Below, in pieces: positions 11,998 to 40,025 of a stretch of 64,000 nucleotides of DNA. Position 1 is the stretch's first letter. Each line of letters starts with the position of its first letter. A model generated the notes under the pieces. The model ran no database searches. It was not told where the DNA came from and worked only from the letters and a program-made list of their open reading frames with translations. Both the position numbers and the translations under genes were made by a program. The stretch lies in sequence record MN655998.1; one strand, given 5' to 3'. Source of the DNA: Escherichia phage E26.

Positions 11998-12818
11998 TTA
12001 GTCACCTCACCGAAAATTGTAAATTGTCTACGATTCTCATCACCGAAAGATTCTACTACGTCGTTTACCTTGACGCAAGTCCCGCGCGGTAAAATTACTT
12101 CACATTCGCAAGGATTCCATGCAATTGACCCAACAACAAAACCTTTATGATCTTTTACGTCAATTACCCACGATACATTACAAGAATGTTGCATCTTTCC
12201 GGTCATGGATTCATATCGATTCTCACAATAAAGGCTAGTGCTGTTTGATAGCCAGCCTCCAAAGATGATCGGTGTCATGCTGGTTGACACAAAGTTTTTA
12301 AAGGTAAATTCCTTATCTTCAATAATACGCTCTATTGTCTGAATGTCAAGATGTTGACCGCGATAAAGAGTACCGTTTAACTTTTCGGTTTTATCCATGA
12401 CGCAATCCATCAAATCAACAATCTCTGATATCTCATCGGTCATGTCTTCTTCCCCTAAGAGAGCACCATTTACCCATTCGTATTGTTCAGACACATAATC
12501 ACAGATTGCATTATATTCTGCTGGGGTTATGTTGTTATGTTTGTAATGTTTGAATACATTATCTCCAAAGTCTTCGGAGTGTACTTCATACATCACATTA
12601 ATGATTTTCTTGACAAATCCATAATCTTGTGTCTCACGCTCAAGGAAGCGGATAACCTTCACATAATCATCAAAGTTAATCTGATCGCTGATCATCTCAG
12701 TGATCATGTAACCATTAATCCCCTCAATGTCATATGTTTCGATGTAATTATCCATACGTTCCATCATTGATTCGCGTGATTCTTCTGAAAGACGAAAATC
12801 CTGTAATTTCTTGAACAT
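11994..12818 (-). CDS. short Alt-like mono-ADP-ribosyltransferase (R-S-E class)
   Basis: 274 aa; LYRGQ, STS and ECEVILPRG motifs; same motif set as C-terminus of Alt but lacks the long N-terminal region. Confidence 0.7.
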   Translation of the reverse strand: MFKKLQDFRLSEESRESMMERMDNYIETYDIEGINGYMITEMISDQINFDDYVKVIRFLERETQDYGFVKKIINVMYEVHSEDFGDNVFKHYKHNNITPAEYNAICDYVSEQYEWVNGALLGEEDMTDEISEIVDLMDCVMDKTEKLNGTLYRGQHLDIQTIERIIEDKEFTFKNFVSTSMTPIIFGGWLSNSTSLYCENRYESMTGKMQHSCNVSWVIDVKDHKGFVVGSIAWNPCECEVILPRGTCVKVNDVVESFGDENRRQFTIFGEVTK

Positions 12819-12842
12819 TTTAAGCCTCCCATATAACAGAAA

Positions 12843-12879
12843 ACGGGGCTAGTATAAAACTAGTCCCCGTTTGAGTCAA
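12843..12879 (-). promoter_or_regulatory. PeSL-type early promoter: -35 TTGACT, stem-loop spacer, -10 TATACT
   Basis: Minus strand TTGACT-17 nt-TATACT with ACGGGGCTAGT/ACTAGCCCCGT palindrome in spacer; upstream of short ART. Confidence 0.55.
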
Positions 12880-12896
12880 CCATTATTTCTTAAAAA

Positions 12897-14993: not shown

Positions 14994-15010
14994 GGGGGCT
15001 TAACGCCCCC
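14994..15010 (-). terminator. hairpin GGGGGC-ttaa-CGCCCCC followed by T-run on minus strand
   Basis: Same hairpin recurs at 18777..18796. Confidence 0.45.
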
Positions 15011-15015: not shown

Positions 15016-15228
15016 TTATAATGCACCATCGAGCAATTGCTCTAATGTGTATCCTGAATAGTCTTTTTCAATCAGGATATATTTTCCTACTCGTTTAATA
15101 CAACCGCGCATTTCAACGTATTCTGCGTAGTTGATGGTGCGAGTTGTTCCATCTTCTAGCAAAGCAGTACCGATTTCGTTAATGCGGTCATAAGTTACGT
15201 CGGTAATGATGATTTCGATGTTAGCCAT
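15016..15228 (-). CDS. hypothetical early protein (70 aa)
   Basis: ORF track; RBS AAGGAG; preceded by PeSL promoter. Confidence 0.5.
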   Translation of the reverse strand: MANIEIIITDVTYDRINEIGTALLEDGTTRTINYAEYVEMRGCIKRVGKYILIEKDYSGYTLEQLLDGAL

Positions 15229-15264
15229 TTGATACTCCTTAGTAGTTCGTTTCGGTATGGGTGT

Positions 15265-15293
15265 ATTATGATATACACCCTCTGTTATGTCAA
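15265..15293 (-). promoter_or_regulatory. PeSL early promoter (-35 TTGACA, -10 CATAAT, palindrome GGGTGTAT/ATACACCC)
   Basis: sigma70 hexamers with 17-nt spacing read on minus strand. Confidence 0.6.
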
Positions 15294-15299
15294 CAACTT

Positions 15300-15479
15300 T
15301 TAGAACATTTTTGAAATTAATTCTGCTTTGATTTCGCAGAGAACATCTAAAGATTTCTCGTCACCCGCTTTTGCTGCTTCTGATTGCATTTTTGAAATGG
15401 CTTCAACGTAAGTGCAATTATAAGCCGCTTGAACTTTAGCGATTGCGATGATTGCCGATTCGATGGTTAAGTGTTTCAT
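15300..15479 (-). CDS. hypothetical small protein (59 aa)
   Basis: Hand-translated MKHLTIESAIIAIAKVQAAYN...; RBS AAGGAGAAT; below ORF-track cutoff. Confidence 0.4.
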   Translation of the reverse strand: MKHLTIESAIIAIAKVQAAYNCTYVEAISKMQSEAAKAGDEKSLDVLCEIKAELISKMF

Positions 15480-15511
15480 GTTTGATTCTCCTTTCGTTTC
15501 GGTATGTGTGC

Positions 15512-15540
15512 ATTATAGGGGATCACCGATCCCCTGTCAA
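15512..15540 (-). promoter_or_regulatory. PeSL early promoter (TTGACA - GGGGATCGGTGATCCCC - TATAAT)
   Basis: Perfect sigma70 consensus hexamers, 17-nt palindromic spacer. Confidence 0.65.
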
Positions 15541-16068
15541 CAACTTTTTTGAATTATTTTTTAATTGCTCATCTTGTAATAGAGCAATAACATGCTGGCG
15601 ATGTTCTTCCGATTGAGGCACACCGAAAAAGTTTGTTTTGTAGAAATATTCTAATCGATCTTCTCGTGTGCTCTCTTCCATCATGATCGCGGGTAGTCCG
15701 AGATTTCGGAAACGTCGCTTTTCTGCTGGCGTAAAATCACTGTAATACAACATAGAATCATCATTACCAGCAATGCTAAACTCATCTTTCATAAAGGAGA
15801 ATATTGCGTTTAAACGCTGTTTACCGTCCACGATTTCGATCTCATAGCGAGAGCCATCATCAATCTTAGCCATTGCGATAGCACCAACCGGAAAATCATT
15901 AATCAGGTTTTCGATAAACATACGTTTGTTTTCGGTGTCCCATACCAAAGGACGCTGATAATCTGGGTTCATGTTGATATAGCCATCTTCTAACCACGCC
16001 TCATAAACAGAGATGACAAAGTTTTTAGTATTGGTATAGTAACGGCGTTTAGGCGTTAAACGGTTCAT
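15523..16068 (-). CDS. DUF262 (ParB/GmrSD N-terminal-like) domain protein
   Basis: YQRPLVWD ... FPVG ... IVDGKQRLNAI match the DUF262 signature (DGQQR box); start set at MNRLTPK with AGGAGA RBS. Confidence 0.55.
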   Translation of the reverse strand: MNRLTPKRRYYTNTKNFVISVYEAWLEDGYINMNPDYQRPLVWDTENKRMFIENLINDFPVGAIAMAKIDDGSRYEIEIVDGKQRLNAIFSFMKDEFSIAGNDDSMLYYSDFTPAEKRRFRNLGLPAIMMEESTREDRLEYFYKTNFFGVPQSEEHRQHVIALLQDEQLKNNSKKLLTGDR

Positions 16069-16069
16069 G

Positions 16070-16399
16070 TTATAGTCTCCTGAATGGATCATCACGTAAA
16101 TCAATATCTTTTAAGAACTCATCCCATGAATGGCGGATATTGTTCTTAATTCTCCAGATAAGCGCAGGGATTGAACGCTCTCCCATCTGGAAGTAAGGAT
16201 CATATGATCCATATGCCCAATATGCTACTACAATTCCACAATCAGCGCAATAATATTCTATTTCACTTGCTGGCGACCAAAGTCCATCAATATGATCGGT
16301 GATCCTGCTTTCGATGTTATGGCTATGGCAATCAGGGCAACGGATGCAATGACCTTGTTTATCGTAATTTGACGTTAGCGAATACTTAAACAATCTCAT
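16070..16399 (-). CDS. Cys-rich putative zinc-finger protein
   Basis: 109 aa; CIRCPDC ... CADCG pairs; translationally coupled to flanking genes. Confidence 0.5.
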   Translation of the reverse strand: MRLFKYSLTSNYDKQGHCIRCPDCHSHNIESRITDHIDGLWSPASEIEYYCADCGIVVAYWAYGSYDPYFQMGERSIPALIWRIKNNIRHSWDEFLKDIDLRDDPFRRL

Positions 16400-17115
16400 T
16401 ATAGATCCTTATTTGCTTCAAATACTGCCTTTGCGAATCCTCGCGGGGTAAGTGACCTTATAGTCTTTGTTTTCGTTCCTTTCCCGCCTAGCTTAGAATG
16501 CTGTTTACTGTACCCTTTATTAATCTGCAACGGTTTCTTTTCTGGCATTATAAAGCCTTGTCCGGTCCATAAGCAAGTCCTTTTCGGGTACATATCACGG
16601 GCGGCAATATACTCAGGAAAAGTAGGATGTTTATCATCTTCCGGCAAATAACCGCCATATTCCCACGGATGGAACATATAATCAGGCTTACGCCACATGC
16701 TAGAGATAACGCTTACAGGATTCTCTATCATGTAGGGAACTCCTAGCCATTCACCCAAATAAGCGGTTATTTTAGCTGCCCGTACATCATGAACTTGAAT
16801 CAATGGTCCTTGCTCTCGTTTCTTTCGTTCAAAGTGTGCAGCGCCACTAACAGCTAAATTGGTGCACGGTGGGAATGCAAATATAATATCCGGTTTCCCC
16901 CATTCAAGGTCCATTGCTCTTTCTAGCCAGTTCAAATCAATCCATGTGTTTACATATGTAATGTTTGGATGTTCAAATCGGGTATTATATTTTTTGTATG
17001 TACCGTGGTCGCCATCGTCAGCATTAAAGCAGATCACCTTATGACCTGCTTTAGCCCATTCTAACCCCATTATCCCCGATCCGTCAAAGTTGCAGAATAT
17101 TAATTTTTGTTTCAC
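16399..17115 (-). CDS. compact C5-cytosine-methyltransferase-like protein (motifs I, IV, VI)
   Basis: FDGSGIMG (FxGxG), FPPCTNLAVSG (PC motif), ENPV (ENV motif) in canonical order; only 238 aa, no obvious TRD. Confidence 0.4.
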   Translation of the reverse strand: MKQKLIFCNFDGSGIMGLEWAKAGHKVICFNADDGDHGTYKKYNTRFEHPNITYVNTWIDLNWLERAMDLEWGKPDIIFAFPPCTNLAVSGAAHFERKKREQGPLIQVHDVRAAKITAYLGEWLGVPYMIENPVSVISSMWRKPDYMFHPWEYGGYLPEDDKHPTFPEYIAARDMYPKRTCLWTGQGFIMPEKKPLQINKGYSKQHSKLGGKGTKTKTIRSLTPRGFAKAVFEANKDL

Positions 17116-17363
17116 GCTGCCCCCATTGGTTTGATAGTAACAGAATCTAAAAGACCTTTGTTAGCCAGTTCGCGGCAAGTTTTCAGATCCGCAACTTCCC
17201 AGCCAGCCGCAATCAGGTTATCAATCAGGCTGTTAGCAATTTCTTCGCTCATGAAAGAGCACTGTTTGCCGATGGTGTAGCGTACACGCTGTAATTTCAG
17301 TTTACGGAAGCCTTTAACGTTCAGGTCTTTAGCGATTTTCTTTGCGGTTTCGATGTTAGCCAT
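17112..17363 (-). CDS. hypothetical early protein (83 aa), first gene of four-gene operon
   Basis: ORF track; ATGA overlap with downstream gene; PeSL promoter upstream. Confidence 0.5.
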   Translation of the reverse strand: MANIETAKKIAKDLNVKGFRKLKLQRVRYTIGKQCSFMSEEIANSLIDNLIAAGWEVADLKTCRELANKGLLDSVTIKPMGAA

Positions 17364-17403
17364 TGTTTGATTCTCCTAAGTGGTATCTCGTCTTGATGGT
17401 TGT

Positions 17404-17432
17404 ATTGTAGGGGAGTTATCCTCCCCTGTCAA
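17404..17432 (-). promoter_or_regulatory. PeSL early promoter (TTGACA - GGGGAGGATAACTCCCC - TACAAT)
   Basis: Hexamers with 17-nt palindromic spacer. Confidence 0.6.
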
Positions 17433-17446
17433 CACTTTTTATAAAA

Positions 17447-17614
17447 TTATTTGTTAATTTCCGGTGCGTTGCTTGGATAGTAACCTTCTTTAACTCCGAG
17501 GTATTTCGCAACCATCCCTACAATCTTCTGTGCTACTACAATGTCAAATTTCAGATAATCTTCACCGTAGGTTTCAATGATATATGCTTCACATGCTGCT
17601 TTAGTCTCGAACAT
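17447..17614 (-). CDS. hypothetical 55-aa protein, paralog copy 1 (MFETKAACEAY...YYPSNAPEINK)
   Basis: Hand-translated; near-identical paralog at 20716..20883. Confidence 0.45.
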   Translation of the reverse strand: MFETKAACEAYIIETYGEDYLKFDIVVAQKIVGMVAKYLGVKEGYYPSNAPEINK

Positions 17615-17647
17615 TTTGATTCTCCTATTTCGTTTCGGTATGTGTGT

Positions 17648-17676
17648 ATTATAGGGGATCTCCCGATCCCCGTCAA
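17648..17676 (-). promoter_or_regulatory. PeSL early promoter (TTGACG - GGGATCGGGAGATCCCC - TATAAT)
   Basis: Near-identical to element at 20918..20947. Confidence 0.6.
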
Positions 17677-17691
17677 CAACTTTTTTTAAAA

Positions 17692-17973
17692 TTATTCGTG
17701 ATTAGTTTCGATGTTGTGCATTTTGCACCAGTTCAGCCAATCGCCCAGTTCTTGATAGTTGATGCTTTTATCTGCTGCCATCGTTTTTGTCTTGATACCC
17801 ATATGTGCGTTATGAGTAAGCATTTTTACAGTGAACTCGATTTTATCGCCTTTAGCTTTAACATCAACCAGTTTGGTCCACTGGCTACCAGCACCGCGAA
17901 TGTTCATGCCAACGATGTTTCCGATGTATGCTTCTTTGTTTTTCAGGATTTCGGTTGCTTTGATGAATTTCAT
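17692..17973 (-). CDS. hypothetical early protein (93 aa)
   Basis: ORF track; RBS; own promoter. Confidence 0.5.
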   Translation of the reverse strand: MKFIKATEILKNKEAYIGNIVGMNIRGAGSQWTKLVDVKAKGDKIEFTVKMLTHNAHMGIKTKTMAADKSINYQELGDWLNWCKMHNIETNHE

Positions 17974-18006
17974 TTTTGATTCTCCAGTTCGTTTCGGTAT
18001 GGGTGT

Positions 18007-18035
18007 ATTATGCTATGTTCTTACTTTGGTGTCAA
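18007..18035 (-). promoter_or_regulatory. early promoter (TTGACA-17-CATAAT), no strong palindrome
   Basis: Hexamer match and spacing. Confidence 0.5.
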
Positions 18036-18043
18036 CAACTTTT

Positions 18044-18313
18044 TTAGATATTTTCAGAAATAAATTTTAAAACTTGACGTAAATGTTTCTCATCTTTGAT
18101 AGTCGCCGGAAGTTCTTCTTTTACTTCCTGTGCAAGATAGATATTTCCGTTCCAAGTGAAAGATCCGTCTTCGTTTACGCGATAGCTGAACATCCACTCG
18201 CAATCATTTTCGATTTCATATACACACAGAAGAGTGTAATCTTCAAAGCTATTGAGTTCAAGGTCGAAGCCGTGACGTTTTGCAAAGTTGGTAGTGGTTT
18301 TAGTCAGTGCCAT
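18044..18313 (-). CDS. hypothetical early protein (89 aa)
   Basis: ORF track; RBS. Confidence 0.5.
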   Translation of the reverse strand: MALTKTTTNFAKRHGFDLELNSFEDYTLLCVYEIENDCEWMFSYRVNEDGSFTWNGNIYLAQEVKEELPATIKDEKHLRQVLKFISENI

Positions 18314-18353
18314 TGTTTGATTCTCCTAAGTGGTATCTCGTTTCGATGTGTGT

Positions 18354-18382
18354 ATTATGCTATAGGCGTGTTCTGGTGTCAA
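18354..18382 (-). promoter_or_regulatory. early promoter (TTGACA-17-CATAAT)
   Basis: Hexamer match and spacing. Confidence 0.5.
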
Positions 18383-18412
18383 TTCTTTTTTTAAAATTTT
18401 ATGCAATAAAAA

Positions 18413-18432
18413 AGCCGACGCTAAGGTCGGCT
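18413..18432 (-). terminator. intrinsic terminator AGCCGACG-ctaa-GGTCGGCT + T-run (minus)
   Basis: Stem plus TTTTTT on minus strand downstream of 18440 gene. Confidence 0.55.
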
Positions 18433-18439
18433 AATAAAA

Positions 18440-18748
18440 TCATTTAGACAAATAATCATTCTGTGCAATCCGGTCAGCATGTTCCGGCGTTACGTCAATT
18501 GCAATCACTTTAACGCGTGCTTTCTTGCGACCTGGGTTTTCTCGTAGCCAGTGCGTGTGACCGTACAAATTTTTATACTTTGATGCTTCTTCGAAGGTAC
18601 GGATCGGACCTGGGTAATCAGCGTAAAGGATCTCTAGATCTTCGGTGATGTAAAAATATACATCGTAATTGCTGTTCTCTAGCTTAAGCAGAGACTTTCG
18701 GAACATTGGGAGATTTTCGCGGGTAAATTCAAAGATATTATCTTTCAT
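18440..18748 (-). CDS. HxHW-family paralog 1 (start adjusted to MKDNIFEF)
   Basis: YFYITEDL ... GHTHWL ... VIAIDVTPEHAD; RBS GAGGAT. Confidence 0.55.
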   Translation of the reverse strand: MKDNIFEFTRENLPMFRKSLLKLENSNYDVYFYITEDLEILYADYPGPIRTFEEASKYKNLYGHTHWLRENPGRKKARVKVIAIDVTPEHADRIAQNDYLSK

Positions 18749-18776
18749 AGTATTATCCTCAATAGTTGGATGAAAA

Positions 18777-18796
18777 GGGGGGCTTAACGCCCCCAT
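18777..18796 (-). terminator. hairpin GGGGGGC-ttaa-CGCCCCC + T-run (minus)
   Basis: Duplicate of hairpin at 14994..15010. Confidence 0.45.
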
Positions 18797-18799
18797 ATA

Positions 18800-19087
18800 T
18801 TAAAACAGTCCTTCCTGTACACCGTAATAGAGTTCGTCGCTGATAATTTCATTAATGCGACGGTGTGCATATTCCTGATTTGCGAAGTTGTCAGCAAGTT
18901 CTACTTTAGTTTCTCCGTCATGAGTCCATTTAGTGATAACTTTACCATCTGCAAATTTGAAGTTGAACTCTTTAGCTACCGCATCGCGTACCAGACGTGC
19001 AAACTTATTGTTGCGGATTGCATTGTCGGTTTCGTGTGCAGCGTGAGCGAATTTGTTAACTTTCAGAGTGATAGTAATGTATGCCAT
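18800..19087 (-). CDS. hypothetical protein (95 aa), KEFN-motif paralog a
   Basis: RDAVAKEFNFKFADG shared with 22100..22411 product (RKALAKEFNTKIHSVTG). Confidence 0.5.
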   Translation of the reverse strand: MAYITITLKVNKFAHAAHETDNAIRNNKFARLVRDAVAKEFNFKFADGKVITKWTHDGETKVELADNFANQEYAHRRINEIISDELYYGVQEGLF

Positions 19088-19133
19088 AATTTGATTCTCC
19101 TAGTTAGAAAGTGTATCTCGTTTCGATGGGTGT

Positions 19134-19162
19134 ATTATGCTATACACCCGACCTTATGTCAA
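19134..19162 (-). promoter_or_regulatory. PeSL early promoter (TTGACA ... CATAAT, palindrome GGGTGTAT/ATACACCC)
   Basis: Same palindrome as 15265 element. Confidence 0.6.
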
Positions 19163-19168
19163 CACTTT

Positions 19169-19447
19169 TTATAAAATAATTTTTTGATATTTTTCTATGA
19201 TGTTCGTGTAAGTCACATCAACCGCTAGCACCGTTGCTTCGAATCCACCGTTTAGCCAATGGCTATGGTCATGATCGTGAAAGAAACCAAGACCAGTACG
19301 AAGACCTTCTTTATATTCTGCGCGTACATTTAGATCATCATCGATAAACAGATAAAACCATGAATTTTTACTAGGATTGATGATACAACCTTTCAGATTA
19401 GGGAGAATATCACGACTAAGAATAAACTTATCACCTACTTTGAACAT
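19169..19447 (-). CDS. HxHW-family paralog 2 (start at MFKVGDKF)
   Basis: FYLFIDDDL ... HDHSHWL ... VLAVDV. Confidence 0.55.
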   Translation of the reverse strand: MFKVGDKFILSRDILPNLKGCIINPSKNSWFYLFIDDDLNVRAEYKEGLRTGLGFFHDHDHSHWLNGGFEATVLAVDVTYTNIIEKYQKIIL

Positions 19448-19461
19448 AATATTTTCCTCAC

Positions 19462-19770
19462 TTATAAAGTTTGACCGTTGTTTTTCGCGTAATGCTGAAT
19501 GCGTGCTTGATCTGCTTCCGCTGGTGATAGATTCCATGCAACCACTACAACTTCTGACGCATCGTCATCCGTTTTTGATACCCAATGATTATGATTCATA
19601 CAATTGTTTGCTATCGCGTGAGCAAATGATTTCATCACTGGAGATGTATAATCATAGTAACGGATTTTCAGATTTTCATCAACATACAAGTAGATCGTAT
19701 AAGGTTTATATTCAGTAACCAGTAACAGACAGTTACGCAATTCTGGGAAAATCTTTTTAGTTAATTTCAT
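19462..19770 (-). CDS. HxHW-family paralog 3 (start at MKLTKKIF)
   Basis: IYLYVDENL ... NHNHWV ... VVVAWNLSPAEAD. Confidence 0.5.
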   Translation of the reverse strand: MKLTKKIFPELRNCLLLVTEYKPYTIYLYVDENLKIRYYDYTSPVMKSFAHAIANNCMNHNHWVSKTDDDASEVVVVAWNLSPAEADQARIQHYAKNNGQTL

Positions 19771-19771
19771 T

Positions 19772-19981
19772 TTATAATCCTCGGTCGCGGCTATAGTACA
19801 CGGTACGCCATACAATTTCATGTTTCGTGTCGCTCCAGCACACGATCTCATTTACTCTTAAATCTTTGTTATCAACAAAAGATGAACATTGTGACGTTTC
19901 TTTCATCATTTTATCTGCTGTTTTCTCATCAAATACAGCACAGATTTCTTTATACACTCGATAATCTTTAAACTTGCTCAT
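19772..19981 (-). CDS. hypothetical protein, MSKFKDY tandem paralog a
   Basis: MSKFKDYRVYKE...FDEKTADKMMKETSQCSSF; paralog immediately upstream. Confidence 0.5.
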   Translation of the reverse strand: MSKFKDYRVYKEICAVFDEKTADKMMKETSQCSSFVDNKDLRVNEIVCWSDTKHEIVWRTVYYSRDRGL

Positions 19982-19983
19982 AA

Positions 19984-20193
19984 TTAACACCAATCAAGAG
20001 TTTTTGAAAACACATCTATCCATTGTTGAGTATATGCGGTTTCTTTCCATGATACAATACCGGTAGAATAATGGTTTTTGTTTCCAGAAAAGGACGGGCA
20101 TTTTGATGCATCTTCCATCATCTTTTCGGCGAACTCTGGTTCGTATACTCGCAAGATCTGTTGATATGCTTTGTAGTCTTTAAATTTGCTCAT
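19984..20193 (-). CDS. hypothetical protein, MSKFKDY tandem paralog b
   Basis: MSKFKDYKAYQQ...FAEKMMEDASKCPSF. Confidence 0.5.
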   Translation of the reverse strand: MSKFKDYKAYQQILRVYEPEFAEKMMEDASKCPSFSGNKNHYSTGIVSWKETAYTQQWIDVFSKTLDWC

Positions 20194-20458
20194 AATCGTT
20201 AACTACCTTATCAGCTTCTTTTATTGTTTTTACATCAACTGCGATAACCCGTAAAGGTTCGTCGTGGTTCCACCAATGATCGTGAATATCAGCTTGTGAT
20301 TTATCACCAAAGGAATCACGAATATCATTTTTACATTTATAGCTAATGTGACCGTCATAGTCAACATAAAGGTAATTATCGAAAATCGGCGTTTTTAAGA
20401 TCATACCGAAAAATCTTTCTTTGTGTGTCTTATCCAGCGTTGCAGTAATTCGCATCAT
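20180..20458 (-). CDS. HxHW-family paralog 4
   Basis: NYLYVDYDGHISY ... IHDHWW ... VIAVDVKTIKEAD. Confidence 0.55.
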   Translation of the reverse strand: MMRITATLDKTHKERFFGMILKTPIFDNYLYVDYDGHISYKCKNDIRDSFGDKSQADIHDHWWNHDEPLRVIAVDVKTIKEADKVVNDYEQI

Positions 20459-20471
20459 AATATATTCCTCT

Positions 20472-20651
20472 TAGAAAGGGATGGTCATTTCTTGAGCTTG
20501 TACATTCTCGTTAGGATTAAACTTCATCCAACCGATATTGTCTACCAGCATATGTACATTTTTATCATACCCTACGTGAGTAGTCAACACTAAATGTGCT
20601 TTACCTTCAACGATGATTTCCATGTACTTCTGAACTTCGATAGCTTTCATT
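20472..20651 (-). CDS. hypothetical small protein (59 aa)
   Basis: Hand-translated MKAIEVQKYMEIIVEGKAHLV...; RBS GGAGAAT. Confidence 0.4.
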
Positions 20652-20678
20652 TTGATTCTCCGTTTGTTGTCTTGATGG

Positions 20679-20712
20679 GAGTATCTTACTACTCCCTTTA
20701 ATCATTGTCAAC
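20679..20712 (-). promoter_or_regulatory. PeSL early promoter (TTGACA, stem GGGAGTA/TACTCCC with -10 TAAGAT in loop)
   Basis: Same stem variant recurs at 31271, 58091, 58856. Confidence 0.5.
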
Positions 20713-20715
20713 TAT

Positions 20716-20883
20716 TATTTGTTAATTTCCGGTGCGTTGCTTGGATAGTAACCTTCTTTAACACCCAGATATTTTGCAACCATTCCGGTGATCTTCTGTG
20801 CTACTACGATATCGAATTTCAGGTAGTCTTCACCGTGGGTTGCTACAATGTATGCTTCGCATTCTGCTTTAGTCTGGAACATT
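20716..20883 (-). CDS. hypothetical 55-aa protein, paralog copy 2 (MFQTKAECEAY...YYPSNAPEINK)
   Basis: Hand-translated; ~85% aa identity to 17447..17614 product. Confidence 0.45.
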
Positions 20884-20917
20884 TTTGATTCTCCTATATC
20901 TCGTTGGTATGTGTGTA

Positions 20918-20947
20918 TTATAGGGGATCTCCCGATCCCCTGTCAAC
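20918..20947 (-). promoter_or_regulatory. PeSL early promoter (TTGACA - GGGGATCGGGAGATCCCC - TATAAT)
   Basis: Duplicate of 17648 element. Confidence 0.6.
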
Positions 20948-20954
20948 AACTTTT

Positions 20955-21263
20955 TTATTCTTCATCTTCATTTTTATCTTTATATGCGTACTTCATAAAT
21001 TTGTCTGCTACTTTGTCCGCGTTTTCAGGTTCTACGTCTGACGCTAGGACAACAGCTAGTTCGGTTTTGTCGTTTCCATCATACCAATGATTATGAGTGT
21101 CGTTTTCTTTGATATAAAACGAATCATTTGGAGTTGTGCGACAATATACGTCTAAATTCCCATCGATATAAAAGATCCAATCCGAATACAAAATGATTGT
21201 TTTAGCCAGATTTTTATTGTCTCTTACAAAAGGTTCCGCGACAAATAGCTTAGTTTGTTCCAT
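20955..21263 (-). CDS. HxHW-family paralog 5 (start at MEQTKLF)
   Basis: IFYIDGNLDVY ... THNHWY ... LAVVLASDVEPENAD. Confidence 0.55.
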   Translation of the reverse strand: MEQTKLFVAEPFVRDNKNLAKTIILYSDWIFYIDGNLDVYCRTTPNDSFYIKENDTHNHWYDGNDKTELAVVLASDVEPENADKVADKFMKYAYKDKNEDEE

Positions 21264-21279
21264 AGTAATTTCCTCAAAA

Positions 21280-21471
21280 TTATACAGCTTCGTAAACTTC
21301 CCAATGTCCAACACCAGCACGCTTAACGAAAAGGTTTTCTTTGATGTTATTCATAAACGTCTGGATGGATTTAATGCGGTTGGAAGGTTTCCAGTCTTCG
21401 TTAGCATTGCGGCGATACATTATAACATTACCAGATCGCTTATATTCAGCAACCATTTTAAGACCACACAT
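21280..21471 (-). CDS. hypothetical protein (63 aa)
   Basis: ORF track; RBS GAGGAT 8 nt upstream. Confidence 0.4.
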   Translation of the reverse strand: MCGLKMVAEYKRSGNVIMYRRNANEDWKPSNRIKSIQTFMNNIKENLFVKRAGVGHWEVYEAV

Positions 21472-21527
21472 AATAATATCCTCAATTTGTGGGAGAGTAT
21501 TACCCTCCCAATTATTGTTATACTACA

Positions 21528-21830
21528 TTACGCAAAATGGCGTGTCAATGCTTCTTTTGCTGTTCCGCTAAGATTCTCGATCTCTCCTGGCATAACATCA
21601 ACCGCCAGAACTTCTACAACATCCTCTGATCCTAACCAGTGAGTATGACCTTTGTAGAACTTGATATCCCATTTAACGCTATCGCTAGCCCACCACACAT
21701 CACCGTCGATAAAGTTGATGTAAAGCACACTACGACACATTGAATTAATTACTTTCAATACTGCGCCTTTCATCTCTTCCACGGTATGGTCTTCCATTTT
21801 GAAGACCTCACCTACCTGAACTTTTGCCAT
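21528..21830 (-). CDS. HxHW-family paralog 6
   Basis: LYINFIDGDVWW ... GHTHWL ... VLAVDVMPGE. Confidence 0.55.
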   Translation of the reverse strand: MAKVQVGEVFKMEDHTVEEMKGAVLKVINSMCRSVLYINFIDGDVWWASDSVKWDIKFYKGHTHWLGSEDVVEVLAVDVMPGEIENLSGTAKEALTRHFA

Positions 21831-21847
21831 TTAGTCACCTCTCTTTA

Positions 21848-22027
21848 TTACATAACAATCACGCCAGCCGTTGAAAGTTGATGTTTCAACTGAGCATTTT
21901 CTGCTACCGTCAAATCAATGATTTCTTGTGACGCTGCAATCATATAGCCATTGGTGATATTGTTTTGCATCAGTTCAATGGTTTCTTCGTTGTAGCGGAT
22001 TTTAGCGATGATTTCGTTGAAGTTCAT
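21848..22027 (-). CDS. hypothetical small protein (59 aa)
   Basis: Hand-translated MNFNEIIAKIRYNEETIELMQ...; RBS AGGAGAAT. Confidence 0.4.
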   Translation of the reverse strand: MNFNEIIAKIRYNEETIELMQNNITNGYMIAASQEIIDLTVAENAQLKHQLSTAGVIVM

Positions 22028-22061
22028 AATTGATTCTCCTAGTTCGTTTCGGTATGTGTGT

Positions 22062-22091
22062 ATTATAGGGGAGTTTAGCCTCCCCTGTCAA
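22062..22091 (-). promoter_or_regulatory. PeSL early promoter (TTGACA - GGGGAGGCTAAACTCCCC - TATAAT)
   Basis: Hexamers plus palindromic spacer. Confidence 0.6.
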
Positions 22092-22099
22092 CAACTTTT

Positions 22100-22411
22100 T
22101 TAAAGTTTTTCCATGATAACGGTCATAATTACATCTTCTGCGCGAGCGGTCAGATTATCAGCGTCAGCATGTGGGCGGTTGGTTGTTACAGAGATAACAC
22201 CGTTGCGCACTGGTTTGATATTGATATCAAGATGATCCGCGAAACGTTCGCCAGTTACAGAATGAATTTTGGTGTTAAATTCTTTTGCCAGTGCCTTGCG
22301 AACTTCACGAATCAGGATAGCGTTTTTCAGTTGGTTCTCCGCGCTCATGGTCTTCTGGGTGTTCATGGTTCCGTCGAAGTCAATCATTGGCAGCGTTACG
22401 ATGTATTTCAT
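22100..22411 (-). CDS. hypothetical protein (103 aa), KEFN-motif paralog b
   Basis: Shares AKEFN block with 18800..19087 product. Confidence 0.5.
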   Translation of the reverse strand: MKYIVTLPMIDFDGTMNTQKTMSAENQLKNAILIREVRKALAKEFNTKIHSVTGERFADHLDINIKPVRNGVISVTTNRPHADADNLTARAEDVIMTVIMEKL

Positions 22412-22456
22412 TTTTGATTCTCCGTTTAAGAAAGTGTGTTTCGTTTTGATGTGTGT

Positions 22457-22485
22457 AGTATAGGGGATCGGTGATCCCCTGTCAA
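22457..22485 (-). promoter_or_regulatory. PeSL early promoter (TTGACA - GGGGATCACCGATCCCC - TATACT)
   Basis: Hexamers plus palindromic spacer. Confidence 0.6.
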
Positions 22486-22498
22486 CAACTTTTTTGAA

Positions 22499-30845: not shown

Positions 30846-31244
30846 TTAACTTTCCAGAATATCGCGAGCTTCGTTACGCTCCTTGATGATTTTCAGGACA
30901 AATTCCAGTTTTTCTTTGTTCAGCGTTCCATTTTCCATTGCTTCTTTGACGGTAAACACTCCGCCACCTTGCCCGTATACAGTGACAGTGATTTCACCTA
31001 ACATCGTGGTATGAAAACCGCCAATTTTCGGTGATTCGAAAGAAACAATTACCTCGCGGACAGTATTACCGTCGTTGATTTCTGAGAGGGTAATGTCGTT
31101 TTTGTAGGCGGTTGCTTTAACCATACGGATCAGCATAGTCTGATCTGGGGAGATGGTCATTTTGTCCATTGCATGTTGCAATGCAGCGTAACCGAAAACT
31201 TTAACGAAGTCCAGAACGTCTTTGCGAGTTTGAAATTTAATCAT
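30846..31244 (-). CDS. hypothetical protein (132 aa)
   Basis: ORF track; RBS AAGGAG. Confidence 0.45.
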   Translation of the reverse strand: MIKFQTRKDVLDFVKVFGYAALQHAMDKMTISPDQTMLIRMVKATAYKNDITLSEINDGNTVREVIVSFESPKIGGFHTTMLGEITVTVYGQGGGVFTVKEAMENGTLNKEKLEFVLKIIKERNEARDILES

Positions 31245-31270
31245 CTTGATACTCCTTAGTTGTTTTGGTA

Positions 31271-31306
31271 TGGGAGTATCTTACTACTCCCGTGATATGC
31301 TGTCAA
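31271..31306 (-). promoter_or_regulatory. PeSL early promoter (TTGACA, stem GGGAGTA/TACTCCC)
   Basis: As 20679 element. Confidence 0.5.
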
Positions 31307-31314
31307 CTGCTTTT

Positions 31315-31464
31315 TTATGCAACCGCAAACATCAACATTTGAACATTCTTGGCTGTCTGGCTTTCAAAGTTCTGACATTCTTTGATAATGTCCTCTACTT
31401 TCTCGCCGGAGATCTCCGCGTAAGTTTCGATTGCCATTTTCAGTACCGCGTCAAAGTTGTTCAT
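31315..31464 (-). CDS. hypothetical small protein (49 aa)
   Basis: Hand-translated MNNFDAVLKMAIETYAEISGEK...; RBS AAGGAGAAT. Confidence 0.35.
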   Translation of the reverse strand: MNNFDAVLKMAIETYAEISGEKVEDIIKECQNFESQTAKNVQMLMFAVA

Positions 31465-31500
31465 TTGATTCTCCTTAAAGTGTATTTCGTTTCGATGGGG

Positions 31501-31531
31501 GTATATTACTACCCCCGTTATTCAGTGTCAA
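31501..31531 (-). promoter_or_regulatory. PeSL early promoter (TTGACA, stem GGGGGTA/TACCCCC)
   Basis: Hexamer plus palindrome. Confidence 0.5.
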
Positions 31532-31750
31532 CTACTTTTTAATGACAAGTTCGAATTTTGCTACCTTGCGTCCTCGTTTATTGAAAGCAACCCACGGACG
31601 GTTTTCAATGTAGAACAATTCTTCGCCAATAATGAATACTGGCTGATTGTAAAGGCGACCCATCAGGTCACGCTGGCGAATGGTAGTAGATTCGTATACT
31701 TCTCCTACTACAAAGTGCTTGCTGATAGAGTCGGTGCAAGTAAATTTCAT
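31532..31750 (-). CDS. hypothetical protein (72 aa; start at MKFTCTD)
   Basis: ORF-track entry starts at TTG that is the -35 TTGACA of the upstream promoter; ATG with RBS AAGGAGAAT is the likely start. Confidence 0.45.
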   Translation of the reverse strand: MKFTCTDSISKHFVVGEVYESTTIRQRDLMGRLYNQPVFIIGEELFYIENRPWVAFNKRGRKVAKFELVIKK

Positions 31751-31780
31751 TTTGATTCTCCTTTGTTTTCTTGATGGGAG

Positions 31781-31810
31781 TATTATGCAATACCCCCTAA
31801 TGTGTGTCAA
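31781..31810 (-). promoter_or_regulatory. PeSL early promoter (TTGACA ... CATAAT)
   Basis: Hexamers with partial palindrome. Confidence 0.5.
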
Positions 31811-31974
31811 CTGCCTTTTTGAAAGTTTTCTGCTTTTCTTAGGTGAAATTTCGAGGAATAAAATTTAAAGTCTTCCTCTTTCACGATACTAATTGACGTT
31901 GCAAGGTTTTCGTCCCAATGGTTGATGATATAGAGATTTCCTTCCGCTCTAAAATACCAACGTTGTGCTTTCAT
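31807..31974 (-). CDS. hypothetical small protein (55 aa)
   Basis: Hand-translated MKAQRWYFRAEGNLYIINHWDE...; RBS AAGAGGTGA. Confidence 0.4.
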   Translation of the reverse strand: MKAQRWYFRAEGNLYIINHWDENLATSISIVKEEDFKFYSSKFHLRKAENFQKGS

Positions 31975-31983
31975 GTTCACCTC

Positions 31984-32151
31984 TTAGCTAAACCAGATTT
32001 TACCATCGTTAGATACTTCGCAGATCAGGCGATTGCGCCATGTGCAGAAGTAAACACGTCCGAATTTACCTTCACCTGCATCGTGCTCGAAAGTAACGCC
32101 TTTGTTTTTCTTAGCCATGTTGCAAGCCTGACGATAAGTTAAAGTTTTCAT
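31984..32151 (-). CDS. hypothetical small protein (55 aa)
   Basis: Hand-translated MKTLTYRQACNMAKKNKGVTFEHD...; RBS AAGGAGAAT. Confidence 0.4.
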   Translation of the reverse strand: MKTLTYRQACNMAKKNKGVTFEHDAGEGKFGRVYFCTWRNRLICEVSNDGKIWFS

Positions 32152-32180
32152 TTGATTCTCCTTAAAGTGTGTTTCGATGG

Positions 32181-32213
32181 GTGCATTATGCTATACCCCG
32201 ATCCGATTGTCAA
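32181..32213 (-). promoter_or_regulatory. PeSL early promoter (TTGACA ... CATAAT)
   Basis: Hexamers ~17 nt apart. Confidence 0.5.
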
Positions 32214-32260
32214 CACCCAATAACAAAAAAGTCGCCACTATGGGCGACTTTGAACAAACA

Positions 32261-34250: not shown

Positions 34251-34417
34251 TATCCGACAACCTCAAAACATTTATCATCAGGAAGAATAGCCCATTCTAC
34301 GCCGTATTCATCCTTAACGTAGTAGCAAGTCCCATCATGTCGAGCATCATATTCATCACCGACAACAAAGCTATCAGCTAGCTCAAAATCTACCGCAACA
34401 CATTTTAATTTTGCCAT
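34250..34417 (-). CDS. hypothetical protein (55 aa; start at MAKLKCV)
   Basis: ORF-track N-terminus reads through the promoter; internal ATG is the likely start. Confidence 0.4.
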   Translation of the reverse strand: MAKLKCVAVDFELADSFVVGDEYDARHDGTCYYVKDEYGVEWAILPDDKCFEVVG

Positions 34418-34448
34418 AATAAAATCCTCATTTGTTTTTGATGGTTGA

Positions 34449-34477
34449 ATTATAGCGGGGATTTCTCCCCGCGTCAA
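34449..34477 (-). promoter_or_regulatory. PeSL early promoter (TTGACG - CGGGGAGAAATCCCCGC - TATAAT)
   Basis: Hexamers plus palindrome, immediately downstream of nrdA. Confidence 0.55.
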
Positions 34478-34485
34478 CACTTATT

Positions 34486-36729
34486 TTACAGCTTGCAAGA
34501 TGAGCACTCGCTAGCGTCTTCCGTACCATCTGCACCATCACGCACGTTAGCGTAATACAGTGTCTTGAGGCCGTAATATTGAGCAAACAACATATCATCT
34601 AATACATCAGCAATATCGACTTTACCAGTCTTATAAGTGCTTGGATCGTAGGATGTGTTGGAACTAATCGCCTGATCTACAAACTTCTGCATGATCGCTG
34701 CCAGTGTCAGATAAGGCTTGTTACCTTTCTTGATCAGTGTCCAAAGCAGGTCAATAACATCAGCATTATTCTCTACGTTCGGAATAACCTGATTAAATTG
34801 CCCTTCTTTCGATCCTTTAACCGATACAATCCCGCGAGGCGGTTCAATACCGTTTGTGCTGTTAGACACCTGAGAAGACGACTCACAAGGCATCAGAGCC
34901 GAAAGCGTACTGTTACGAATGCCATATTTTTTCAGGTCTTCGCGCAGTTCTTCCCAATCCATCTCATACACCGGATCAACCAGTTCATCTACTGTCTTTT
35001 TGTACCAGTCAATAGGAAGTTCACCGCGACCATAACGTGTTTCGTGCATCAGTTCGCAAGCGCCCTTCTCTTTAGCCAGTTGCACACTAGCTTTAATCAG
35101 AGCATATTGCAAGCGTTCAAACGTTTTATGCGTAAACTCGTTAGCGTCTTCATATGTGAAGAAATTATCCGCAAGATATGATGCAAAGTTAGTCACGCCA
35201 ACACCCAGAGAGCGACGTTTTTTGGCTGTCAGAGCTTGTTCTACTGGATAATCCTGGTAATCTAACAAGTTGTCAAGCGCACGCACCATAACCATAGCAA
35301 TGCGTTCTACTTCTTCCATGTTTTCGATATCGAAATTACCTAAAACATATGCTGCCAAAGTGCATAGACTGATCTCTGAATCATCACGACCCATCGGTTT
35401 TGTCGGCAGAGCAATTTCACAACACAGGTTAGATTGTTTAATCGGTGCTACATTACGAATAAACGCCCCGTGATTGTTCATGTTGTCTGTGAACGCTGGA
35501 TAGATTCGACCAGTGTTAAAACGTTCAATTGCCACCGCTAAAAACAGGTCTTCGGCTTTAACACGAGTTTTACGAACACTCGGATCTTTTTCCAGTTTTT
35601 CGTAAAGCTGACGGAATCCTTCCTCATCTCGGAAGTACAGATCCCACAACAAGCCACCCGCAACATCTGGACTAAACAGAGTAATGTAATCCCGTTTAAG
35701 GAATCGCTCTACCATCAGGTTATTAATCTGTACGCCGTAATCAAGATGACGAATGCGGTTATCTTCTACCCCTTTGTTGTTCTTCAACACAATAAGACTT
35801 TCAAACTCTAAATGCCACATTGGGTAATAGAGAGTCGCCGCTCCGCCACGAATACCGCCTTGCGAGCATGACTTAACAGCAGTCTGAAAATGTTTCCAGA
35901 ATGGGATAACGCCAGTATGACGAACTTCACCATGTCCGATCTTAGATCCTTCCGCGCGAATCATACCAGCATTGATACCGATACCAGCACGCTTACTAAT
36001 ATACTTGATGATTGCATTTGCTGTTTCATTGATGCCCTGCAATGAGTCATCACTTTCAATCACCACACACGAACTAAATTGTCGTGTTGGAGTACGCACA
36101 CCCGCCATAATCGGAGTAGGCAGAGAAATTTGCTTATTCGCAACAGCATTATAAAAATCAATCACATGTTCAAGTCGATTTTCTGTCTCTTCTTGATGTA
36201 AGCACATACCGATCAGCATATAAGCAAATTGCGGTGTTTCAATGATTTTCTTAGTGCTGCGATCCTGAACAAGATATTTCTCTTTTAACTGCATCGCACC
36301 AGCGTAGGTCATTTTAAAATCAAGTTTATGATCGATGAATTTCTCCAGATATTCCACTTCTTCACGGGAATACTTTTGCAGAATTTCGCGATCATATTTT
36401 CCGGTTGCAATATTACGCTCAATATGGCTATAAAAATCAATCGGTTGGAATTGACCGTATACTGATTTACGAAGCGCGAACATTGCAAGGTTACTTGCTA
36501 CATATTGATAATCAGGTGTTTCTACAGTAATGTTATCTGCGGCGACCTTAATCAATACTTTCTGGATATCATTGGTAGACATACCTTCTGTCAGAAGTGG
36601 TTCAACCATATCAAACAATTCATATGGATCAACGTTATGACCTTCGGCTGCCGCTTCCAGAATTTTCATTACTTTTTCTTTTTCAAACGGAACAGTCAGA
36701 CCGGAAGACTTAACAACATTTTTAATCAT
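34486..36729 (-). CDS. nrdA: ribonucleotide reductase large (alpha) subunit
   Basis: 747 aa; N-terminal ATP-cone, catalytic Cys motifs, C-terminal CxxC tail. Confidence 0.9.
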   Translation of the reverse strand: MIKNVVKSSGLTVPFEKEKVMKILEAAAEGHNVDPYELFDMVEPLLTEGMSTNDIQKVLIKVAADNITVETPDYQYVASNLAMFALRKSVYGQFQPIDFYSHIERNIATGKYDREILQKYSREEVEYLEKFIDHKLDFKMTYAGAMQLKEKYLVQDRSTKKIIETPQFAYMLIGMCLHQEETENRLEHVIDFYNAVANKQISLPTPIMAGVRTPTRQFSSCVVIESDDSLQGINETANAIIKYISKRAGIGINAGMIRAEGSKIGHGEVRHTGVIPFWKHFQTAVKSCSQGGIRGGAATLYYPMWHLEFESLIVLKNNKGVEDNRIRHLDYGVQINNLMVERFLKRDYITLFSPDVAGGLLWDLYFRDEEGFRQLYEKLEKDPSVRKTRVKAEDLFLAVAIERFNTGRIYPAFTDNMNNHGAFIRNVAPIKQSNLCCEIALPTKPMGRDDSEISLCTLAAYVLGNFDIENMEEVERIAMVMVRALDNLLDYQDYPVEQALTAKKRRSLGVGVTNFASYLADNFFTYEDANEFTHKTFERLQYALIKASVQLAKEKGACELMHETRYGRGELPIDWYKKTVDELVDPVYEMDWEELREDLKKYGIRNSTLSALMPCESSSQVSNSTNGIEPPRGIVSVKGSKEGQFNQVIPNVENNADVIDLLWTLIKKGNKPYLTLAAIMQKFVDQAISSNTSYDPSTYKTGKVDIADVLDDMLFAQYYGLKTLYYANVRDGADGTEDASECSSCKL

Positions 36730-39560: not shown

Positions 39561-39615
39561 AATATAATCCTCTCTTCGTTTCGATGTTTGTATTATACAT
39601 CATCTGTGTTCGGCG

Positions 39616-39945: not shown

Positions 39946-39974
39946 TGTTAATCCTCCATTGTTTCGATGTGTGC

Positions 39975-40002
39975 ATTATACATTACCACATAAGCATGTC
40001 AA
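39975..40002 (-). promoter_or_regulatory. early promoter (TTGACA-16-TATAAT)
   Basis: Consensus hexamers upstream of 39616 gene. Confidence 0.5.
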
Positions 40003-40025
40003 CATCTTTTCATAAATTTTTAGGC

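Follow-up and report, generated by a model that had tools for sequence, protein, structure and literature searches.

Promoter-early stem-loops (PeSLs) were defined in phages phi1 and RB49 at the locus of alt and the DNA ligase gene (Arbiol et al., 2010, Genome Biol Evol 2:140; PMC2839356), with 52 PeSLs counted in phi1 and 51 in RB49. The stem-loop is typically of the form polyG...polyC and is found at five positions relative to the promoter. In lacZ fusions wild-type PeSL206/205 gave ~13,000 Miller units, clones of other PeSLs acquired mutations in the -35 or -10 element, and the stem-loop of PeSL211/210 alone cut downstream lacZ to the rrnB T1 level. Mini-circles were demonstrated by inverse PCR for the open reading frames (ORFs) ORF192 and ORF210 in RB49 and phi1, and one RB49 mini-circle crossover was mapped within the loop; the authors speculate on a recombination protein that binds GGGG..CCCC, and no dedicated recombinase has been identified for PeSLs (PMC2839356). 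Here we describe units of the same design on the minus strand of a 64,000-nt stretch of Escherichia phage E26 (MN655998.1; hereafter the window), clustered between 15.2 and 22.5 kb. These are very probably PeSLs, acting as composite regulatory cassettes in a hyperplastic region of Krischvirus.

Megablast of the array region assigns the window to Krischvirus (RB49-like T4-type phages). The region matches 63 records, RB49, phi1, JSE and GEC-3S among them, and Delraymugoa and Aragogtheria align at 96% identity over 100% of the query. In the annotated genomes of GEC-3S, phi1, RB49, JSE and Delraymugoa the array is flanked by alt on one side and by HNH endonuclease and gp30 DNA ligase genes on the other, and comparison of the annotated regions places it collinear with ORF185-ORF211 of phi1/RB49. 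Judged by this gene order, the array region is the hyperplastic region running from alt to the DNA ligase gene (ORF185-211), whose ORFan192 was assigned to 'HPR3' by Arbiol et al. (PMC2839356). Searched with one 104-nt unit, 58 Krischvirus records each show 5-10 similar places. Beyond Krischvirus the same query has only three marginal matches (~76% identity over ~75 nt, E 4e-6 to 2e-4), to Pseudoalteromonas phage PH357, jumbo coliphage EJP2 and Erwinia phage Hallingskeid, which probably reflect generic promoter and Shine-Dalgarno (SD) resemblance. By these similarity searches the PeSL family of E26 is confined to Krischvirus records.

The E26 array differs in nothing categorical from the PeSLs of RB49 and phi1 (also JSE and GEC-3S). 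Genus, alt-gp30 locus and association with ORFans are shared, as is the layout: an AT-rich region with an upstream stop codon, TTGACA-N17-TATAAT, a GGGG..CCCC stem-loop, an SD sequence and ATG. The stem-loop subclasses are the same, and junction-by-junction alignment of the window from 14.5 to 23.5 kb with the corresponding stretch in 11 Krischvirus genomes (the relatives referred to below) identifies positional orthologues with near-identical leaders. What distinguishes E26 is its cassette set, which lacks ORF192, ORF189.1 and ORF195/196 and includes ORF211, together with its own hairpin/-10 core alleles at given junctions (e.g. GGGGAGGCTAAACTCCCC upstream of ORF209). The preliminary description of this DNA had recognized the shuffling-cassette architecture of RB49-like phages, and common genus and locus, orthologous units and eight gain or loss events bounded by PeSLs all agree with it. 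The public GEC-3S record carries promoter, -35 and -10 features at all 11 canonical sites and at the other clusters listed below. The E26 array is thus already known, being the element and locus of the founding papers and annotated in a public record.

More distant systems share part of this design. The PeSL/PmSL analogues of T4/PST and KVP40/nt-1 (Comeau et al., 2014; PMC4122927) also combine a promoter and a stem-loop in hyperplastic regions, at indel boundaries, but their promoters are of the types TTTACW..TAYWAT, TTGYVH..TAWWAT or MotA-box middle; they are not homologues of the E26 family, which is of pure E. coli sigma70 consensus. Lambdoid 'morons' and integron cassettes resemble PeSL cassettes in that small accessory genes with their own expression signals are gained and lost as units, and circular intermediates are common to integron and PeSL cassettes. 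PeSL cassettes differ from integrons in relying on homologous recombination at a repeated regulatory sequence, with no integrase or attC/attI, and PeSL units, unlike morons, are co-oriented with their neighbours.

Promoter units and stem-loops of the array

Units were located by a regular-expression scan combined with a hairpin search of the minus strand from 15.0 to 22.7 kb. This gave 11 canonical units and a doubtful one (21548) in the interval from 15.2 to 22.5 kb; at least 12 had been claimed, and it is the twelfth that is in doubt. The units and the intervening terminators are listed with the first base of each -35 hexamer and with folding z scores relative to dinucleotide shuffles.

22409..22497 (-): PeSL upstream of the ORF210 homologue, orthologue of PeSL211/210; -35 TTGACA 22485, spacer hairpin AGGGGATCACCGATCCCCT (-13.8 kcal/mol, z -2.7), -10 TATACT, ATG 22411
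22025..22103 (-): PeSL upstream of the ORF209 homologue; -35 TTGACA 22091, 18-nt spacer, hairpin GGGGAGGCTAAACTCCCC (z -3.1), TATAAT, ATG 22027
21469..21553 (-): doubtful atypical unit; TTGACA 21548, weak -10 TAGTAT, hairpin TGGGAGGGTAATACTCTCCCA downstream of the -10 (z -3.4), ATG 21471
20880..20958 (-): PeSL upstream of the ORF205 homologue, orthologue of PeSL206/205; -35 20946, 12/12 match, spacer hairpin GGGGATCGGGAGATCCCC (z -2.9), ATG 20882
20648..20723 (-): PeSL with six ORFs behind it (20650 down to 19169); -35 20711, hairpin GGGAGTA-GTAAGA-TACTCCC over the -10 TAAGAT (z -4.4), ATG 20650
19085..19174 (-): PeSL upstream of the ORF198 homologue; -35 19162, hairpin GGGTGTAT-AGCATA-ATACACCC over the -10 CATAAT (z -2.5), ATG 19087
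18777..18794 (-): canonical intrinsic terminator after the ORF198 homologue; GGGGGCGTTAAGCCCCCC followed by TTTT, found by terminator scan and annotated in GEC-3S
18311..18432 (-): PeSL of the 'stem-loop upstream of -35' subclass; terminator hairpin 18413-18432 (AGCCGACCTTAGCGTCGGCT followed by TTTTTT), -35 18382, TTGACA-N17-CATAAT, no core hairpin, ATG 18313
17971..18047 (-): promoter unit with no stem-loop; -35 18035, TTGACA-N17-CATAAT (z +0.2), ATG 17973
17612..17688 (-): PeSL upstream of the ORF191 homologue; -35 TTGACG 17676, spacer hairpin GGGGATCGGGAGATCCCC (z -2.2), TATAAT, ATG 17614
17361..17444 (-): PeSL upstream of the four-gene operon ORF190/DNA methyltransferase/ORF188/ORF187; -35 17432, spacer hairpin GGGGAGGATAACTCCCC (-19.4 kcal/mol, z -4.7), -10 TACAAT, ATG 17363
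15477..15552 (-): PeSL upstream of the ORF186 homologue; -35 15540, 12/12 match, spacer hairpin GGGGATCGGTGATCCCC (z -1.8), ATG 15479
15226..15305 (-): PeSL upstream of the ORF185 homologue; -35 15293, hairpin GGGTGTAT-ATCATA-ATACACCC over the -10 CATAAT (z -3.0), ATG 15228
14994..15010 (-): canonical terminator at the array end, before alt, found by terminator scan and annotated in GEC-3S

The shared order on the minus strand is an A-tract, TTGACA, a spacer of 17-18 nt, a TATAAT-like -10, an A-rich leader, GGAGAATCAAA and ATG. The A-tract (typically AAAAAAGTTG) directly precedes the -35 in 10 of the 11 canonical units, and also contains the TAA stop codon of the upstream gene, 5-20 nt upstream. 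TTGACA is replaced by TTGACG once, while the -10 hexamer may be TATAAT, CATAAT, TATACT, TACAAT or TAAGAT. A conserved leader of the form ACAC(A/C)C-AT(ACC|CGA|CAA)... follows. The predicted start site (+1) is the base 7 nt past the -10, at a distance of 35-36 nt from the first T of TTGACA; of the 20 catalogued units, 19 have the A of a conserved C-A-T at this position. The SD block GGAGAATCAAA stands 3-6 nt before the ATG, and all 11 units have GGAG(A/T)ATCAA and then ATG; leaders are 26-40 nt long and 50% A. The distance from the -10 to the SD sequence, put at about 25 nt in the preliminary description, ranges from 19 to 33 nt. That description also had several predicted ORFs starting at the TTG of a -35 box, which is exact for ORF 20607..20711; those at 17679 and 22094 start at a TTG 3 nt upstream of the -35 (TTGTTGAC).

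The strict motif TTGACR-N17-YAWAAT has 12 matches in the window, all on the minus strand, compared with 0.18 expected (100 dinucleotide shuffles, largest count 1), and the repeated layout reported earlier for this strand is present where it had been placed. A consensus scan from 14.9 to 22.9 kb returns 10 sites at which no fewer than 11 of 12 promoter positions match, each of them on the minus strand and coinciding with a listed unit, and the 11 canonical units score 10-12 of 12 with spacers of 17-18 bp. At a loose threshold of 9/12 the same region is no richer than shuffled sequence (32 promoter-like sites vs 25.8). At none of the 11 junctions, compared in up to 10 genomes, does the -35 hexamer vary (diversity 0.000). 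The PeSL array is real and far beyond chance. The doubtful unit at 21548 stands apart: its TTGACA is still part of the preceding gene, at the 3' end, its -10 reads TAACAT in relatives, and GEC-3S has no promoter annotation there.

The stem-loops fall into several registers. In six units (22485, 22091, 20946, 17676, 17432, 15540) the stem lies wholly within the spacer between -35 and -10 and takes the form AGGGGATC-NNN(N)-GATCCCCT (GGGGATC..GATCCCC) or GGGGAG-loop-CTCCCC. In three (19162, 15293, 20711) it extends over the -10, so that the hexamer occupies the loop and 3' arm. The 18382 unit has a canonical terminator hairpin ~31 nt upstream of the -35, the doubtful 21548 unit a hairpin downstream of the -10, and 18035 none. 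The claim that the palindrome sits within the spacer therefore applies to the first six units; of the stems cited for it GGGGATC..GATCCCC is correctly placed, whereas GGGTGTAT..ATACACCC and GGGAGTA..TACTCCC overlap the -10. The nine core hairpins fold at -12 to -19 kcal/mol (z -1.8 to -4.7 vs dinucleotide shuffles), while the cores of 18382 and 18035 fold no better than shuffles. The 18035 core from -35 to -10 is the same in the eight relatives that have the junction, with 1-nt differences confined to the leader/SD and A-tract.

Relative to the predicted +1, the hairpin 3' end lies at -1 in the classes that overlap the -10 and at -12/-13 in the spacer class. Being upstream of the unit's own start site, the hairpin would be missing from its own mRNA and present only in RNA read through from upstream, a position that fits an insulating role by attenuation or 3'-end formation. 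Stems are also kept by two-sided changes. At the 19162 junction six relatives have GGGGATAT..ATATCCCC where E26 has GGGTGTAT..ATACACCC, with two base pairs altered on both sides, and elsewhere GGGAGTA/TACTCCC corresponds to GGGGGTA/TACCCCC and GAT..ATC to GAG..CTC. Across orthologous junctions loops vary freely while stems hold their pairing. A search of Rfam 15 over 12-24 kb returned only a sub-threshold snoU54 match (23.5 bits vs a gathering threshold of 35, E = 0.4), taken as chance, and the conserved leader is no described RNA family in Rfam 15. The idea that the GATC pairs in GGGGATC..GATCCCC mark Dam or restriction sites was set aside: the window has 356 GATC compared with 340 expected from trinucleotides, and the 11 GATC in the cores are due to the stem sequence itself.

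Exchange of cores and cassettes

Variation at orthologous junctions is concentrated in the hairpin. Diversity is 0.089 in the spacer, as opposed to 0.029 in the upstream segment, 0.027 in both the -10 and the leader, and 0.021 over the gene's first 100 nt. This 3-4 fold higher diversity arises because whole hairpin/-10 cores are swapped from a shared pool: comparing E26 with the 11 relatives, the junctions at 22091, 20946, 22485, 15540 and 19162 hold different cores between flanks that are 99-100% identical. Upstream of ORF209, relatives hold GGGGAGGCTAAACTCCCC, GGGGAGGTTAAACTCCCC, GGGGATCGGGAGATCCCC or GGGGATCACCGATCCCC in combination with TATAAT or TATACT; five different core alleles occur there, and these cores recur at other junctions. 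The variation is not decay; it looks like the pattern expected from gene conversion between PeSLs, a process unmentioned in the two PeSL papers (PMC2839356, PMC4122927). Rather speculatively, the promoter-core palindrome could itself start such conversion, for example as a hairpin or cruciform cleaved by a phage structure-specific nuclease. Conversion started in this way would explain the spacer diversity, the shared pool of cores between the same flanks and the missing U-tracts (see below), and if true PeSLs would be self-targeting recombination hotspots, more than convenient homology patches.

Whole cassettes are also gained, lost and replaced. Among the 11 relatives there are eight independent events with a PeSL at both ends. 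For the events at ORF186, ORF191, ORF195/196 and ORF206-209 the BLAST overlap at the junction measures 42-97 bp, while the insertions at 17.69 kb and the 3.3-kb deletions are deduced from PeSL sequence that is chimeric or flanks the event. Cognac, PTE-Eco09 and Sf20 lack the ORF186 cassette, and the PeSL left behind is a chimera that joins the core of PeSL187/186 to the SD region of PeSL186/185, with the crossover in ATACCGAAACGAA. In UPWr_E1 the ORF191 cassette is absent and the crossover falls at the predicted start site; in PTE-Eco09 ORF206-209 are absent and the crossover lies in ACACACATACC. The junction at 17.69 kb holds ORF192 (537 bp) in RB49, an unrelated 367-bp insert in JSE and nothing in the E26 window and phi1, and an extra ORF195/196 cassette occupies the 18382 unit in RB49, UPWr_E1 and Sf20.

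The largest changes are two independent deletions of ~3.3 kb (~15 genes) between the paralogous ORF191 and ORF205 cassettes, with the crossover in the PeSL core in FL04 and at the leader/gene start in Cognac. These two cassettes (17446-17706 and 20714-20976, minus strand) are duplicates in their entirety, PeSL plus 55-aa gene, with 84.5% DNA identity over 264 aligned columns and 89% protein identity. In two more events, which removed ORF211 alone or ORF210 together with ORF211, a PeSL is found at one end. ORF211 is present in E26, RB49, JSE and Delraymugoa and absent in phi1, GEC-3S, FL04 and PTE-Eco09; one end of this indel is in a PeSL and the other falls at 22864, the 3' terminus of the HNH gene. 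In this comparison of genomes PeSL-mediated recombination is supported by how the junctions are built, with long overlaps and chimeric units, and not by an excess of events.

Proposed function and rival explanations

The following course is proposed. Right after infection, host sigma70 RNA polymerase would take the near-consensus promoter, which comprises an A-tract resembling a proximal UP subsite, TTGACA, a 17-18 bp spacer and TATAAT or CATAAT. Transcription would start at the conserved A of C-A-T, 7 nt past the -10; the site is predicted from the aligned units and promoter activity is taken from the orthologue. The A-rich leader with GGAGAATCAAA-ATG would then allow efficient translation of one to six small genes. 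T4 RegB nuclease cuts GGAG in early SD sequences and would offer a possible shut-off route, if E26 has RegB. In read-through RNA the hairpin would attenuate or terminate transcription, or stabilize or mark the 3' end, thereby insulating neighbouring cassettes, a role reported for one orthologous spacer-type stem-loop in a lacZ reporter and extended here to the other stems. At the DNA level, the near-identical ~100 bp that recur at every second gene junction or so may serve as portable homology for the phage recombination system. The outcomes would be deletion, insertion and replacement of cassettes and swapping of cores, as seen here by comparison, with the mini-circle intermediates coming from the literature. 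The preliminary description had set promoter function against hairpins acting only as terminators, which is a false opposition, the published hairpin being the terminator/attenuator part of a composite promoter-terminator unit.

Several observations weigh against this assignment. A search of the literature library at hand found no transcript-mapping, start-site or transcriptomics study for RB49 or Krischvirus, and start sites and early timing are for this reason predicted for phage and genus alike. The 18035 unit has no stem-loop, and in place of a core hairpin 18382 has a separate upstream terminator. Rho-independent terminators resemble PeSLs in having a GC-rich 7-8 bp stem-loop on the 3' side of a gene, but they need a U-tract, and the PeSL stems have none, with only 1-4 T in the next 8 nt. 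The terminator scan misses the PeSL hairpins and calls only three others in the array (18794, 18432, 15010), which are true terminators. On sequence grounds the PeSL hairpins were thus rejected as canonical intrinsic terminators, although attenuator activity is possible. Terminator activity is documented for one spacer-type stem only, and for the classes that overlap the -10 it is at present presumptive.

The cassette events also temper the model. Five intra-operon events did not involve a PeSL and show microhomology of only 3-17 bp: an extra gene at 16066 in FL04; an extra gene at 21829 in JSE and UPWr_E1; the absence of ORF207 from UPWr_E1; replacement of the 19204-19975 block in JSE; and ORF189.1 (246 bp in phi1, RB49, GEC-3S and Delraymugoa), absent in E26, JSE and UPWr_E1. 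Against the genomes that carry ORF189.1 there is a BLAST overlap of 16 bp at 17099-17114 (-), which suggests a short direct repeat flanking the gene in those genomes. Per junction such microhomology indels are about as common as events at PeSLs, so that PeSLs are one route to plasticity and not the sole one. Breakpoints fall in PeSLs or cassettes in 15 of 24 cases (P = 2e-7 vs 15% sequence coverage), a count in which the crossover coordinates of the 3.3-kb deletions are approximate. The fairer null, in which every gene junction is equally likely to be hit and 50% would fall in PeSLs, is not exceeded (P = 0.15), and breakpoint enrichment at PeSLs was dropped as a claim.

Of the rival explanations, the one that survives best leaves promoter function unchanged and has the palindromes act mainly on DNA, as recombination initiators or protein-binding sites, for instance cruciforms or hairpins attacked by a structure-specific nuclease or sites of a GGGG...CCCC-binding protein, and not primarily as RNA terminators. 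The missing U-tracts, the RB49 crossover within a loop and the speculation of Arbiol et al. on a GGGG..CCCC-binding protein are in line with it, as are the hairpin spacer being the most variable segment (0.089 vs 0.021-0.029 in the flanks) and the swapping of cores, which is what a palindrome-centred conversion hotspot would produce. However, stem sequences differ by class and change in compensatory fashion, which favours structure over a sequence-specific site; most chimeric deletion junctions cross over in the leader between -10 and SD, not in the palindrome; the hairpin is strictly upstream of +1 in three registers, in keeping with an RNA-level role on read-through transcripts; and the stem-loop alone lowered downstream lacZ to the rrnB T1 level (PMC2839356). 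On balance we consider a mainly DNA-level role unlikely.

Far less probable is that the hairpins are functionless passengers, alike through recent duplication of promoter cassettes and inherited by descent. Many cores are indeed near-identical and the ORF191 and ORF205 cassettes are plain duplicates (84.5%), but pairing is kept in no fewer than four unrelated stem sequences spread over three registers, two-sided compensatory differences occur at an orthologous junction where loops vary and stems are constant, the folds beat dinucleotide shuffles, and a reporter effect of the stem-loop is published (PMC2839356). That the units are only terminators or intergenic hairpins, with incidental -35/-10 matches and genes read from a few distant promoters, can practically be dismissed: promoter-like sites at the 9/12 threshold are no commoner than in shuffles, but the ten sites of at least 11/12 have 17-18 bp spacing, lie on the coding strand and keep a fixed distance from SD and ATG, the strict motif far exceeds expectation (12 vs 0.18), the -35 is invariant in all relatives, two units have a promoter and no core hairpin, and orthologous PeSLs drive lacZ strongly (PMC2839356). 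We therefore retain the assignment of the units to PeSLs.

Cassette genes, outlying units and significance

With corrected starts, the promoters from 22485 to 15293 serve 1, 2 (+2), 1, 6, 1 (+1 beyond a terminator), 1, 1, 1, 4, 1 and 1 genes; the 22091 promoter serves two genes, or four if 21548 is no promoter. The initial estimate of one to four genes per cassette fails at 20711, whose promoter precedes six ORFs. The view that the cassette genes are largely unannotatable holds up. Pfam recognizes one of the 24 cassette proteins, ORF187 (GmrSD_N/DUF262, E = 2.8e-20); 22 of them belong to no Pfam family, and matches to PROCT and a TFIIB zinc ribbon fell below Pfam thresholds. Each of the 24 has a PHROGs family, all of 'unknown function' except phrog_757, DNA methyltransferase. 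Paralogues occur in phrog_7474 (two), phrog_8009 (two, 89% identical) and phrog_8471 (two).

Six further paralogues of 92-102 aa lie within 3.4 kb (18440-21830, minus strand), at 21528-21830, 20955-21263, 20180-20458, 19462-19770, 19169-19447 and 18440-18748. They have invariant H-x-H-W, V and A positions in a motif ...HxHW...V(L/I)A(V/I)DV... and belong to PHROGs 9345, 15965, 15972, 16486 and 17255, all of unknown function, and to no Pfam family. The last of them, the ORF197 homologue (ATG 18748), has no promoter of its own and lies between the terminators at 18777-18794 (upstream) and 18413-18432 (downstream), so its expression would need read-through of the first.

The DNA methyltransferase (16399-17115 (-), 238 aa, phrog_757 E = 7e-90) is annotated as Dcm/C-5 methylase in some relatives and has no Pfam match at E <= 0.01; its ORF starts at GTG 17115 and overlaps the end of ORF190. 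About 175 nt of the gene are ~80% identical to Salmonella siphophage-sized genomes, a possible sign of horizontal exchange. In the ORF187 homologue the TAA stop codon of phi1 is lost (window 15523-15552 (-)), and nine extra codons (SKKLLTGDR) cross the -35 into the loop of the next PeSL hairpin and end at a TGA within GGTGATCC. The ORF211 homologue (22499-22843 (-), 114 aa) has a hydrophobic N-terminus; the 2010 paper calls ORF211 a homologue of an integron ORF (PMC2839356).

Additional copies of the unit had been reported outside the array, and those at 12879, 31306-32213, 34477, 40002 and 58124-59735 are real, to which 39619 is added; a spacer hairpin is missing at 40002.

12816..12891 (-): PeSL-type unit between alt and the next ADP-ribosyltransferase gene; -35 12879, hairpin across the -10 and then TTTT (-20 kcal/mol, z -4.5), promoter in GEC-3S
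31242..32225 (-): second cluster, four PeSL units between the denA-side ORFans and pnk/nrdB; -35 at 31306, 31531, 31810 and 32213, four GEC-3S promoters
34415..34489 (-): PeSL between nrdA and three small ORFs upstream of nrdB; -35 34477, spacer hairpin GCGGGGAGAAATCCCCGC (z -4.2), -10 TATAAT
39558..40014 (-): two early-promoter units with PeSL-type leaders and no spacer hairpin; -35 at 39619 and 40002
58060..59747 (-): third cluster, five units in the ORFan region near the topoisomerase gene; -35 at 58124, 58347, 58890, 59203 and 59735

A terminator probably precedes the 40002 unit, by presumed correspondence with the GEC-3S promoters and a terminator annotated near the gp32 gene. Marking such units in annotation pipelines would avoid spurious TTG-initiated ORFs and would delimit the ~25 early transcription units of the 64-kb stretch.

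The E26 window contains nothing new in kind, and the 11-genome comparison extends the original two-genome evidence: one junction may hold nothing, ORF192 or an unrelated gene, both single cassettes and ~15-gene blocks are lost via chimeric PeSLs, and cores are exchanged between junctions. PeSLs are one of the few experimentally supported mechanisms for the shuffling of accessory genes in large lytic phages, and the repeated promoter-terminator unit doubles as the homology 'linker' of modular evolution theory.

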